45,626 nt of DNA, from IMG/VR virus record IMGVR_UViG_2579779076_000011; one strand, 5' to 3'. The translations under genes and the position numbers were made by a program. The DNA comes from a virus (taxonomy: Duplodnaviria > Heunggongvirae > Uroviricota > Caudoviricetes). A model generated the notes under the pieces. It worked only from the letters and a program-made list of their open reading frames with translations. It was not told the DNA's origin and searched no databases. Of the stretch, positions 50 through 3,020 are shown piece after piece. Within the stretch, counting starts at the first letter, position 1, and each line of letters opens with the position of its first letter.

Positions 50-232
50 TTATTTCTGATTAGGCGTAATCAGTTCTGGTGGGGGGAATGCCGATTTCTC
101 CCGCGTGACCTTAATGTTTTCTGGCAGGTGTAGCCCAAGTTCGCAGCGACTCCGTGCTTCAATAATGCCATTGGTACCATCGGCAAGTACCAGGTGAACC
201 GCGTCACCACGCTTTAATGTGAGTTTAAGCAT
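50..232 (-). CDS. hypothetical small protein (60 aa), last gene of leftward early operon
   Basis: Intact ORF; its start codon overlaps the stop of the upstream gene (TAATG arrangement at 229-234), suggesting translational coupling. No recognisable motif. Confidence 0.4.
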   Translation of the reverse strand: MLKLTLKRGDAVHLVLADGTNGIIEARSRCELGLHLPENIKVTREKSAFPPPELITPNQK

Positions 233-801
233 TAGCGTACCCTCAGCGAACGTTCGCCGCGTTCCAGATGTGCGCCTGGTACCGGGTTTAATAACTCGGC
301 TGGTGGTGTTTCTCCACGCGCCAGTATTTCGGCGGCAACCGCCTCCGCAGATTCAATCACTTCTTTAATGGCTCGCTTGTTTGGTGTAATAACCGTTTCT
401 ACATCAACAAGTGACACGCCTTCATACTCATCCGGGATCTTATCTTTGCTATCGATAATTACCCGGATAGCCCCCTGTGCATCAGTAAATGTGTTTTTTG
501 CGGTTTTTAGTTTATCCAGGCCAGCAGCTTGCAGGCAGGCGAGCATATGCTTCCGAATTGCTTTTTCCTTGCCTTCAAAGGACGTCTTACGGGTAGCCAG
601 GCGAGACATTTCTTCAGCGCAGGTACTGGCATTGCCCTGTAAATTGCGGCAGATGACCATCATGGCGTCCAGTTTGTCTCCCAGTTCTCCTTCCATACCT
701 TCAAGTGTGTCGGCGATCATCTCTGGCGTCAGTTCGTCGGAGGTTTCCAGCAGGTCAATCAGGCTGGCGTATTCTTTTGCAATAGCGATAGCGGTGCTCA
801 T
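232..801 (-). CDS. phage Gp157-family protein (recombination-module accessory protein)
   Basis: 189 aa acidic protein whose sequence recalls the siphovirus Gp157 family, which typically sits beside a single-strand annealing protein gene. Assignment from memory, not searched. Confidence 0.5.
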   Translation of the reverse strand: MSTAIAIAKEYASLIDLLETSDELTPEMIADTLEGMEGELGDKLDAMMVICRNLQGNASTCAEEMSRLATRKTSFEGKEKAIRKHMLACLQAAGLDKLKTAKNTFTDAQGAIRVIIDSKDKIPDEYEGVSLVDVETVITPNKRAIKEVIESAEAVAAEILARGETPPAELLNPVPGAHLERGERSLRVR

Positions 802-3020
802 GCTGTTTGCTCCTGTGCGGCGGCGAGAGCGGCGAGGCGTTCGGTTTTGATTTCATTCAAACGGCGCAGGCGCGAACCAAGATAAGTTGAATACTCCTTA
901 TCACCTTTGGATTCTGCGGCTTTGCGGTGAACTTCTACTTCCCGCGCAATAAGGCCATAGACTTTATTAACTTCATTGGGGGTTACGGCTGCAGCCAGTG
1001 TTTTGGCAACACCTGAGAGTCGTTCATCCAGTTCTTCACGCAGTCGGGTAGCATCCTCTGCTTTCTCGCTTGCCTTCTTAATACCGTATTCTGTATTCAG
1101 CTCGGCGGTGTAGGCACTATCGTTATGCATATCCATATAAACATCTGCCGCAAATCCCAGATGAGATAGTGCTTTGACGGTGGCATCAGTAAGAGACTTT
1201 TTGGAGGCCTCTTTTTCCATTACCAGTGCCCCTTTGTTATTTTTTGATATGTAATCCGTGTGGCCATATGACGGAATAAATCCTTTCACTCCGTTCCAGA
1301 CGTACCAGAGATCTATCCGGATGGTGTGTACTGACAGGCAGAACAGGGAGCCGTCAGCATCCCTGACAGGTTTTTGTCCAATAATTTTCCCTGTCTGATC
1401 CTGTATAGGTTCAAGTAATGGCACACCGCGATCCACTCGCTCCTCCTTGATTTCAACTCCCCAACCAATGCCTTCCATTCCCAGCACTTCAGTCGCACGC
1501 ATCAAAATATATTGTGCGCGTATGGAGTGCAGTCCTGCACCGTAATCATTATGTGTGACATACGCAGGATCGGTCCGCTGAACGCGATTCCAGATAGCCA
1601 AATTTGCTTTGCTCTGGTCATCATTCATTGCTGACAGATAATGCTCCATGCGAATTGATGCAGTTTTTTCCTCGGTATGGATCCGCTCAACCAGAGCGTC
1701 AACGTTCTGCACCAGGTCTTTTACCTGCTCGCTAAGTTTTTCTTGTGGAGGAGTCTCTTCTTCCAGGATAACAGTTACAGATTCCCGCTGTGATACGGCG
1801 TTATTTTCTGGTACGCCATACACATGGCGGGGCGTGACAAACTGCTCACGCAACTGCTGCAAACTACGCTCTCCAGCATTTGCTGCTTCGCTTTTTTCGC
1901 CCTGATTTGAGGGGGGTTCTGACATCATCCCATCGATTGAGAATCGCCCGCCGCCGTGGTTGGTGACTTTTACATCACCCTTTGGTGCTGCGTCCTTTGG
2001 CTTCTCTTCAACAGCATTTGCATCACGCTGCCCGTTAGCTTGCAGCCAGTTGTCGATGTGACTGCGCAGGGATTGCGGGAAATGGTACGTGTCTTTTGCG
2101 GGGGCACTCTGAACGACACCGAATACGGATGCCCGGTCATAGGAAAGGATCTGATCCGTTGTGCGCAAGGCCATTGACCAGCGTTTAAAATCCTCCCGAT
2201 CCTGGCTGATTATTTCGTCTGCCGCTTTCAGGACGCTGGGGGTGATTTTTTCCGGGCCAACGGGTAACAGAGCGCAGGCAATTTCACGATCCAGTGTAGC
2301 GTGAGTCTGTTTGTAAGGACGTGCGGATGCTGTTTCTGGTTTTACCTCCGGCAGCATTTCATCGCGTTTACCGGGATTCTCTACCCATTTTTTTATAAAT
2401 TTGGAGATAGTCCAACTGGTCGGGTTTTGTTCCTGGGTATCGCAACTTGCCAAAATTGCATGTACCAGATTATTCAATCCAGCAATATGCATGTACTCGA
2501 TGGGCTTACACGCCACCATGGCATCAAGAACGATGCGGTTAAACGCGTCAACCTCATCCTCACTGTCAGTATCACTGTTGTCGAGCATCTCCAGGTATTC
2601 ACGCGTCTGCGCAAGCAATTCACTGTTGACTTCGTTGGCGTCGTGGCTGAACAGCAGAACGGCGGCGAATCGTTCACGAGCCGGCAGTTTCATCAGGTCG
2701 TTAACCTGTGCGATATCTGCTGAACCGCTATCTACAACGGGGGTGTTAACTACCCATTTTTCGCCATCAAAACTGTGTTCTGTGGCGAACGTCTCATCAA
2801 ACTCACCAACGCCTGGGCGCGGTTGGCCCGGGGCATCTTCCCAGATTTTAGGTTTGAAATAGTTGTCGCCGTGGTCAGGGTAGGCTTCCCACAATTTGCC
2901 GATGATGATGTTCTCGGCAACTTTTTTGTTAGGGGCGTCGATGGCGATGGCCAGCGCCGGGATCGCGCCGTTTTTGAGCGCGCCTTTTTTCGCTTCTAAC
3001 AAGCCGTTAAAAATGGTCAT
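798..3020 (-). CDS. large recombination-module protein with ERF/Rad52-like C-terminal region (tentative single-strand annealing protein)
   Basis: 740 aa ORF with start context GAGGAAAGACCAATG. C-terminal ~200 aa (..KALSHLGFAADVYMD..) resembles the ERF/Sak annealing-protein pattern; the N-terminal ~500 aa are unassigned. Overlaps the downstream Gp157-like gene by 4 nt. Confidence 0.55.
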   Translation of the reverse strand: MTIFNGLLEAKKGALKNGAIPALAIAIDAPNKKVAENIIIGKLWEAYPDHGDNYFKPKIWEDAPGQPRPGVGEFDETFATEHSFDGEKWVVNTPVVDSGSADIAQVNDLMKLPARERFAAVLLFSHDANEVNSELLAQTREYLEMLDNSDTDSEDEVDAFNRIVLDAMVACKPIEYMHIAGLNNLVHAILASCDTQEQNPTSWTISKFIKKWVENPGKRDEMLPEVKPETASARPYKQTHATLDREIACALLPVGPEKITPSVLKAADEIISQDREDFKRWSMALRTTDQILSYDRASVFGVVQSAPAKDTYHFPQSLRSHIDNWLQANGQRDANAVEEKPKDAAPKGDVKVTNHGGGRFSIDGMMSEPPSNQGEKSEAANAGERSLQQLREQFVTPRHVYGVPENNAVSQRESVTVILEEETPPQEKLSEQVKDLVQNVDALVERIHTEEKTASIRMEHYLSAMNDDQSKANLAIWNRVQRTDPAYVTHNDYGAGLHSIRAQYILMRATEVLGMEGIGWGVEIKEERVDRGVPLLEPIQDQTGKIIGQKPVRDADGSLFCLSVHTIRIDLWYVWNGVKGFIPSYGHTDYISKNNKGALVMEKEASKKSLTDATVKALSHLGFAADVYMDMHNDSAYTAELNTEYGIKKASEKAEDATRLREELDERLSGVAKTLAAAVTPNEVNKVYGLIAREVEVHRKAAESKGDKEYSTYLGSRLRRLNEIKTERLAALAAAQEQTA

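Follow-up and report, generated by a model that had tools for sequence, protein, structure and literature searches.

Phage P22 carries an annealase system, Erf with Abc1 and Abc2, that has no exonuclease of its own and whose accessory proteins modulate host RecBCD. In RecE, the exonuclease VIII of the Rac prophage, the nuclease domain occupies residues 564-866, and the only known function of the N-terminal domain is to boost linear-linear recombination, the N-terminus being dispensable for basic recombination (PMC11611040). According to Fu 2012, as cited in PMC11611040, full-length RecE outperforms the nuclease domain alone in linear-linear recombination. Here, we describe a recombination locus at the start of the 45,626-nucleotide Caudoviricetes stretch IMGVR_UViG_2579779076_000011 (the whole stretch is referred to as the window), in which a 740-aa protein joins an N-terminal module, partly related to RecE, to a predicted Rad52-type C-terminal core. 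We propose that this protein is a phage Rad52-superfamily annealing protein that would act with a Gp157 partner, would depend on the host for resection and would use its N-terminal module (N-module) as a docking adaptor; we give this reading a probability of roughly 0.6.

The open reading frame (ORF) of 740 aa is a real, conserved gene, because it is annotated in RefSeq, is present in Escherichia coli genomes and has full-length relatives across genera. The first 4.3 kb of the window was 100% identical to a prophage beside tRNA-Ser/mtfA in E. coli TUM11353, where the annotation reads 'exonuclease family protein', 'siphovirus Gp157 family protein', hypothetical proteins, and then a DUF4224 gene and an integrase. 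Of 5,426 complete E. coli genomes, 493 contained this 4.3-kb region at 90-100% identity, and the index of the assembly collection listed the exact 740-aa protein for 1,058 blocks. A megablast search of this region found nothing in the phage collection, and relatives emerged at the protein level; those of full length (~670-800 aa, with identity down to ~30%) came from Salmonella, Klebsiella, Raoultella, Pectobacterium phage ZF40 (34% identity) and Stenotrophomonas phage BUCT708 (45% identity). A phmmer search of the PDB sequences with the whole protein returned nothing. The gene and the parts of its product are as follows.

798..3020, minus strand: 740-aa ORF (RefSeq WP_028985345.1), comprising a YdfE_N module, an acidic linker, a predicted Rad52-like annealase core and a helical tail
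2736..3020, minus strand: domain D1, residues 1-95, a small α/β domain with an isoelectric point (pI) of 5.0
2346..2693, minus strand: domain D2, residues ~110-225, helical, pI 4.6, from the AlphaFold2 model and composition; structure searches gave no significant neighbor
2016..2315, minus strand: domain D3, residues ~236-335, helical, homologous to the noncatalytic region ~260-370 of RecE
1617..2015, minus strand: acidic low-complexity linker, residues 336-468, pI 4.9, with low predicted local distance difference test (pLDDT) scores at both model edges
1917..1976, minus strand: linker motif, residues 349-368, KVTNHGGGRFSIDGMMSEPP, consensus NLGGGxFS[IV][DE]GLM
1125..1616, minus strand: predicted Rad52/Mgm101-type single-strand-annealing core, residues ~469-632, with the signature helix KKSLTDAtvKALShLGF
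801..1124, minus strand: C-terminal tail, residues 633-740, three long helices in the AlphaFold2 model

The C-terminal ~290 residues retrieved stand-alone proteins of 230-280 aa that carried no Pfam annotation. The alignment of these stand-alone homologues (A1) revealed the invariant block KKSLTDAxxKALSxLGFxADV, with K607, K608, T611, D612, K616 and G622 as the invariant residues of the core, while the C-terminal tail varied from one homologue to the next. AlphaFold2 modeling of the C-terminal segment (292 aa) with A1 gave a mean pLDDT of 86 and the following order of elements: two helices, a β-hairpin, a helix, long antiparallel strands, a helix and three long helices, the last of which form the tail (H187-228, H233-256 and H260-291 in the numbering of the segment). 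As evident from the model, the predicted core contained the β-hairpin, bridging α-helix, three-stranded β-sheet and DNA-binding α-helix that mark the Rad52 fold, and its best meaningful structural neighbors were human RAD52 and yeast Mgm101.

Profile comparisons pointed in the same direction. When the A1 profile was searched against all PDB sequences, the top five matches were all human RAD52, with a sensible hairpin and helix register and an E-value of ~0.3, which is below significance. Alignment of A1 with RAD52(1-212) by hhalign, for which the RAD52 query sequence was identical to PDB 1KN0, covered 117 columns and RAD52 residues 45-161 at 26% identity (E 2.6e-4, probability 42%), and the signature helix KKSLTDAxxKALSxLGF lined up with RAD52 RKEAVTDGLKRALRSFG. 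At E<=1, a Pfam scan of the 740-aa protein with a model set that did not include YdfE_N returned no family at all, and hence no ERF (PF04404), RecT or Rad52_Rad22 (PF04098), and the same scan of the stand-alone homologue from Pseudomonas phage PseuP_222 gave no related family, Rad52_Rad22 included. We conclude from the modeled fold that residues ~468-632 form a Rad52/Mgm101-type single-strand annealing protein (SSAP) core that lies outside current Pfam and for which annealing activity is predicted. An earlier sequence-only reading of this DNA had described the C-terminus as ERF/Rad52-like; the annealing fold was upheld in its Rad52/Mgm101 form by the AlphaFold2 model and its structural neighbors, whereas the ERF assignment was not. 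Some phage annotators have already named stand-alone core homologues 'RAD52-like annealing protein', and the PHROG family that holds them, phrog_7838, is labeled 'exonuclease'.

The same reading had treated the ~500 residues fused ahead of the core as one region. The extension is present, but it is not a single region: a module of three domains and 335 residues is followed by the acidic linker of ~130 residues, and the core starts at ~468. AlphaFold2 modeling on a 51-sequence alignment (A2) gave confident and independently placed D1, D2 and D3 domains (mean pLDDT 85.7, predicted template modeling score (pTM) 0.41). A precomputed match to YdfE_N (PF27430) was on record for the exact 740-aa protein and for 120 of 120 listed homologues; it was the only Pfam family on record for the exact protein, and the core domain was in no Pfam family on record. 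Comparison of the protein with YdfE of E. coli K-12 by BLAST gave an E-value of 1e-8, with D1 33% identical. The K-12 ydfE gene in the Qin prophage (L016, 5079-5999), which is the source of the Pfam name, is an IS2-truncated remnant or pseudogene next to intQ, and a literature search for YdfE turned up no functional work.

D3 carried the resemblance to RecE. It matched NCBIfam NF007259 (exodeoxyribonuclease VIII) over profile positions 260-370 (E 5e-13, 48 bits versus a cutoff of 1269 bits) and phrog_607 over profile positions 275-372, and in a BLAST comparison with K-12 RecE only residues 242-307 aligned, with RecE 263-332 (E 0.007). Pfam and NCBIfam scans of the 740-aa protein revealed no nuclease domain and no DUF3799, a Foldseek search of the N-module against BFVD gave no match at E<=0.001, and no nuclease-like fold was found in the PDB or BFVD structure searches. 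The conserved positions of A2 were nearly all Ala, Pro, Gly, Phe, Leu or Trp; there was no invariant Asp, Glu or His, and no acidic or His cluster, and only a few polar residues (K11, E45, E61, R219, E246 and R296) were semi-conserved. Residues 1-335 are thus taken not to be a nuclease, because the RecE similarity lies outside RecE 564-866, no nuclease fold was found and no catalytic-type residues are conserved. Together with the linker motif, they make up a module (YdfE_N) that is portable and apparently noncatalytic.

These results bear directly on the names under which the protein is filed. RefSeq calls it 'exonuclease family protein', the ZF40 counterpart gp07 is a 'putative exonuclease', and phrog_2489, labeled 'exonuclease', covers the 740-aa protein over its full length. 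If these labels were right, residues 1-335 would hide an exonuclease with a novel active site, and nuclease and annealase would be combined in one polypeptide. Such a fused enzyme would be convenient in an operon that has no separate exonuclease, and the N-module is carried elsewhere by genuine nucleases. However, those nucleases own separate PDDEXK or DEDD catalytic domains C-terminal to the module, the RecE similarity falls only outside the RecE nuclease domain, the structure searches produced no nuclease fold, the conserved residues look structural, none of the Asp, Glu or His positions being invariant, and the NCBIfam score of 48 bits stands against a cutoff of 1269. We therefore regard a hidden exonuclease as very improbable, and the suggestion in the sequence-only reading that the extension might be one was not borne out. 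A match of the N-terminus to a known recombination exonuclease, which that reading had also considered, does exist, but only to the noncatalytic RecE segment 263-332; it does not amount to a described exonuclease architecture and is no sign of nuclease activity. The RefSeq and PHROG label 'exonuclease' appears to derive only from this shared noncatalytic part, residues ~230-335.

The distribution of the N-module suggests what it may do. A HMMER search with residues 1-345 found only 139 clusters among 1.84 billion representative proteins. Effector classes were defined among N-module proteins of at least 480 aa by clustering on the last 250 residues; single-linkage clustering on all sequence after the N-module had merged every protein and was dropped. 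Twenty-one clusters with a Rad52-like C-terminus grouped with the window protein, 16 were RecE-type PDDEXK nucleases, 11 were DEDD Rv2179c-like 3'-5' exonucleases, and 26 belonged to a third, YdfE-type family with a common acidic C-terminal region. For the third-family C-terminus, hhalign comparisons were negative for a hidden Rad52, PDDEXK, DEDD or RecT domain. In the nucleases, the PDDEXK and DEDD catalytic domains were separate from the module and C-terminal to it. One N-module protein had a RecT-family match, and in another protein (P0216) the PF06630 N-domain of RecE itself was joined to a Rad52-like C-terminus.

The linker motif followed the module across these classes. A hidden Markov model (HMM) of the motif matched 103 of 120 close family members and, among N-module proteins, 12 of 24 with a Rad52-like domain, 6 of 16 with PDDEXK, 4 of 11 with DEDD and 7 of 26 of the third family; it matched none of the 120 Gp157 controls and was not found in K-12 RecE. 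In every cassette inspected, a single large gene of the early-left operon carried the module and, if the contig was long enough to show it, lay immediately upstream of xis/int. The cassette types differ in their partners, as listed below.

N-module with PDDEXK nuclease: partner is an overlapping downstream RecT gene (PF03837, E 2e-36)
N-module with Rad52-like annealase: partner is an overlapping downstream Gp157 gene
N-module with DEDD exonuclease (823-aa 'exonuclease VIII' of phage Tritos and PPompW prophages): no partner, alone beside xis/int
YdfE type without enzyme domain: no partner, alone

In the first type, the gene after the module-bearing nuclease gene (P0176) gave an insignificant BLAST comparison with K-12 RecT and a Pfam RecT match at E 2e-36. 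In the third type, the 823-aa protein (Tritos 3375-5846, PPompW 3375-5842) matches window residues 42-330 and is equal in length to P0193, in which the module is followed by a DEDD Rv2179c-like 3'-5' exonuclease and not by the RecE PDDEXK domain; the DEDD assignment in Tritos follows from this length and module match to P0193. No annealase gene lies alongside the 'exonuclease VIII' gene in Tritos or PPompW.

One reading of this domain shuffling is that YdfE_N and its linker motif serve together as a portable docking platform, which would tether whichever enzyme leads the cassette (a 5'-3' PDDEXK nuclease, a 3'-5' DEDD nuclease or a Rad52-type annealase) to one common partner, such as the host replisome, SSB, a nuclease component or DNA ends. 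We put this forward tentatively, as possible but somewhat short of probable. If it is true, the long-unexplained N-terminal region of RecE would gain a function, and the recombination system here would be one that recruits its annealase and not a nuclease. The module might instead have an autonomous function in host takeover, toxicity or anti-defense, like its neighbors DicB, YdfD and KilR, so that the fusions would reflect mere adjacency at the end of the early-left operon. YdfE-type proteins, which have no recognized enzyme domain and no recombinase seen adjoining, fit such a function, as do the kil, dicB and ydfD-type genes that the module adjoins, its acidic character, and the dispensability of the RecE N-terminus for basic recombination (PMC11611040). 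Against it, four different DNA-end-processing or annealing domains have independently acquired the module, whose only other fusion among the 139 clusters is to the YdfE-type C-terminus; the linker motif is kept in all fusion classes; and full-length RecE improves linear-linear recombination, in the account of Fu 2012 that PMC11611040 cites. On balance, we consider an autonomous module unlikely.

The genes around that of the predicted annealase are the following.

3051..3371, minus strand: 106-aa ORF, phrog_2479, function unknown, 30 nt upstream of the 740-aa ORF in the same operon
232..801, minus strand: Gp157-family gene, 189 aa, PF05565, translationally coupled to the 740-aa ORF via an ATGA overlap
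50..232, minus strand: 60-aa ORF, phrog_2482, function unknown, coupled via a TAATG overlap

The operon thus holds the 106-aa ORF, the 740-aa protein, Gp157, the 60-aa ORF, a DUF4224 gene and int. The start codon of the 740-aa ORF is ATG, a GAGGAAA ribosome-binding site lies 7 nt upstream of it, and a purine-rich ribosome-binding site precedes each of the 740-aa, 189-aa and 60-aa ORFs. At the ATGA junction the TGA of the 740-aa ORF shares bases with the ATG of the Gp157 gene, and at the TAATG junction the TAA of the Gp157 gene shares bases with the ATG of the 60-aa ORF. These junctions and the PF05565 match confirmed the arrangement first read from the sequence, in which the 740-aa ORF (798-3020) overlaps a Gp157-like gene that is followed by a coupled small ORF. 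The 60-aa ORF is conserved in synteny: its position is occupied by a 61-aa ORF in BUCT708, with 28 nt matching at the nucleotide level, and by a 58-aa ORF in ZF40, both putative homologues. The 106-aa ORF was found at the same position in BUCT708 as a 107-aa ORF. The 106-aa ORF had no match to Pfam. A CsrA-like identity for the 60-aa ORF was considered and rejected, the Pfam CsrA match being weak (E 0.1, residues 1-45) and BLAST to E. coli CsrA empty.

The Gp157 protein matched PF05565 with an E-value of 2.5e-28 (99.5 bits versus a 28.6-bit cutoff), and of 120 listed homologues only a 110-aa fragment lacked this family. In Pseudomonas phage PseuP_222 and two metagenomic phage contigs, stand-alone Rad52-like genes (27-34% identity) were likewise followed by an overlapping Gp157 gene, and in both contigs (L010 and L012) an SSB gene came next. 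Gp157 belongs with the Rad52-like domain, since stand-alone Rad52-like genes also have the overlapping Gp157. The PHROG family of the window Gp157, phrog_253, is labeled 'Mu Gam-like end protection'. The window Gp157 itself had no match to the Mu Gam family PF07352. One member of the Gp157 family scored above both gathering cutoffs over the same region (61 bits for PF05565; 30.8 versus 28.3 bits for PF07352), and for this reason the Gp157 and Mu Gam families are probably related. Literature searches on Gp157 function returned nothing relevant.

Together, these features outline how the system could work. The Rad52-type core would bind single-stranded DNA (ssDNA) and pair complementary strands without RecA, and the co-translated Gp157 would be its dedicated partner, possibly Gam-related, protecting DNA ends or restraining host nucleases. 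No cognate exonuclease was annotated in the operon or the rest of the prophage, where the only other nuclease is a distant GIY-YIG gene, and because of this the ssDNA would have to come from host enzymes or replication, that is, from host nucleases or from ssDNA already exposed at replication forks. This prophage operon has no SSB gene. The N-module would serve as an adaptor for docking or scaffolding, through which any recombination enzyme fused to it would be led to one shared partner or site.

A Rad52-like domain could also serve another ssDNA task, such as replication restart, genome circularization or ssDNA protection, or could be the target or decoy of a host defense that senses recombinases. 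The lack of a cognate exonuclease in operon and prophage would suit such a task, as would the position of the cassette beside xis/int and outside the replication module, and several defense systems target phage recombinases (PMC11846896). The signature helix and invariant basic residues are nevertheless kept across very divergent core homologues, the stand-alone homologues are found beside SSB in cassettes typical of recombination, and most such tasks would use the same annealing chemistry anyway. We judge a different ssDNA task decidedly unlikely and return to the annealing protein with its Gp157 partner as the preferred reading.

Besides an autonomous YdfE_N function, several observations weigh against this preferred reading. 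The sequence links to RAD52 are weak, as the E-value of ~0.3 in the PDB profile search, the hhalign probability of 42% and the missing Rad52_Rad22 match indicate, and the hhalign register keeps only one basic residue of RAD52 (R153, at K616), a correspondence that was read by eye and is not robust. The acidic N-module lacks a structural relative whose function is known, and 'adaptor' is a term argued entirely from its distribution. One stand-alone homologue is paired with a PolB-exo-type 3'-5' exonuclease and not with Gp157. The window Gp157 and Mu Gam gave an hhalign probability of 0.4%, so that a Gam-like role is suggested by one intermediate sequence and the PHROG label. Finally, literature searches found no biochemical or genetic data on any member of the 740-aa protein family.

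Upstream of the operon, between a pL-like promoter (4248-4220) and the 106-aa ORF, lies a leader of ~1 kb (3372-4367, minus strand) that contains no ORF or annotated gene. It was the best-conserved nucleotide segment in the comparison with BUCT708 (71.6% over 858 nt), whereas the coding genes gave patchy matches of 160-240 nt, and a 54-nt core of it was 85% identical in Pectobacterium ZF40. A tRNA-like hairpin with a perfect T-arm, common to ZF40, was found at ~3803-3856, and a probable intrinsic terminator (hairpin and T-run), with a stem that differs from that of BUCT708 by compensatory changes, at ~3754-3775. A tRNA in the leader was rejected, as ARAGORN found none and the Rfam matches were below threshold, and the leader fold was not unusually stable (z-score -0.16). 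The leader may be a regulatory leader RNA, a small RNA or a terminator that controls the recombination operon.

Other features of the window were also observed. YdaS-like and YdaT-like ('toxin YdaT family') genes occupy the positions of lambda Cro and CII (4880-5645), and this immunity layout was also present beside distant relatives of the cassette (L017, L020 and L021). Within 9940-10734, Rfam matches at 9945-10142 to isrK, c4-a1b1 targets and C4 antisense RNA overlap the start of a gene for an ORF6N-domain protein, which looks like a c4-ant antirepressor control module of the P1/P7 type in a prophage with otherwise lambda-like immunity. An accessory block (12864-15467) between the replication and late-control regions contains the GIY-YIG nuclease gene (12864-13529) and an ImmA/IrrE metallopeptidase gene (14979-15467) with an adjoining hypothetical gene; it may be a moron or defense cargo. 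After this block, the GC content drops to 0.32-0.40 across 15-18 kb. Within 22389-42107, the morphogenesis region combines a lambda-like set of head genes (terminase, gpW, portal, S49 protease, decoration protein, major capsid and FI) with genes for a contractile tail of the P2 kind (baseplate V/W/J/I, sheath, tube, X and D), a hybrid similar to that of ZF40-type myoviruses.

The annealase is of a kind already known, and the N-module and Gp157 are each listed as a family of unknown function. Within the literature searched, three points appear to be undescribed: that a Rad52-type annealase is fused to the N-terminal module of RecE/YdfE, that this module is interchanged among four effector types with a common linker motif, and that systematic 'exonuclease' misannotation results. 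The family is present in ~9% of complete E. coli genomes and is widespread in Salmonella and Klebsiella prophages, where it bears the 'exonuclease' label. As the probable Rad52-type domain is absent from Pfam, phage recombinase surveys and SSAP libraries built on Pfam may miss the family. With one module and its conserved motif carried by an annealase and by two exonuclease folds unrelated to each other, there is now a concrete way to approach what the RecE N-terminus does, and the annealase and Gp157 without a nuclease make a compact candidate recombineering system for enterobacteria.

Compared with the Rad52/Mgm101/phage Sak branch, the window protein has a similar predicted core fold, element order and signature helix. 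In contrast, it adds a 465-aa N-terminal extension and a three-helix tail, its core has no Rad52_Rad22 match, and the basic DNA-binding residues of RAD52 are only partly kept in the alignment. The stand-alone Rad52-like and Gp157 cassettes, with or without SSB (PseuP_222, L010 and L012), share the core at 27-34% identity and the same Gp157 overlap, but their annealases of 230-260 aa lack the YdfE_N module and linker, and an SSB gene often adjoins. YdfE of the K-12 Qin prophage has the same Pfam N-module, with D1 33% identical, and its gene likewise adjoins an integrase; it differs in being an IS2-truncated pseudogene, and the acidic C-terminal region of intact YdfE-type proteins has no relationship to Rad52, PDDEXK, DEDD or RecT. 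Erf and the Abc proteins of P22 are unrelated in sequence to the window proteins, and the parallel with that annealase system is one of logic only. Unlike the two-component recombinases of the lambda Red and RecET type, the window annealase gene has no adjoining exonuclease gene. RecE of the Rac prophage shares the noncatalytic N-terminal module, in which D3 corresponds to RecE ~260-370; D1-D3 are shared by RecE-like proteins that are more distant, and also match 'exonuclease VIII' proteins of the DEDD type. Both the window protein and RecE are also encoded by the large first gene of a translationally coupled pair, in an early-left operon near xis/int. However, RecE ends in a PDDEXK nuclease (564-866) and is partnered by the annealase RecT, whereas in the window the bearer of the module is the predicted annealase itself, its partner is Gp157 and no nuclease is encoded with them.

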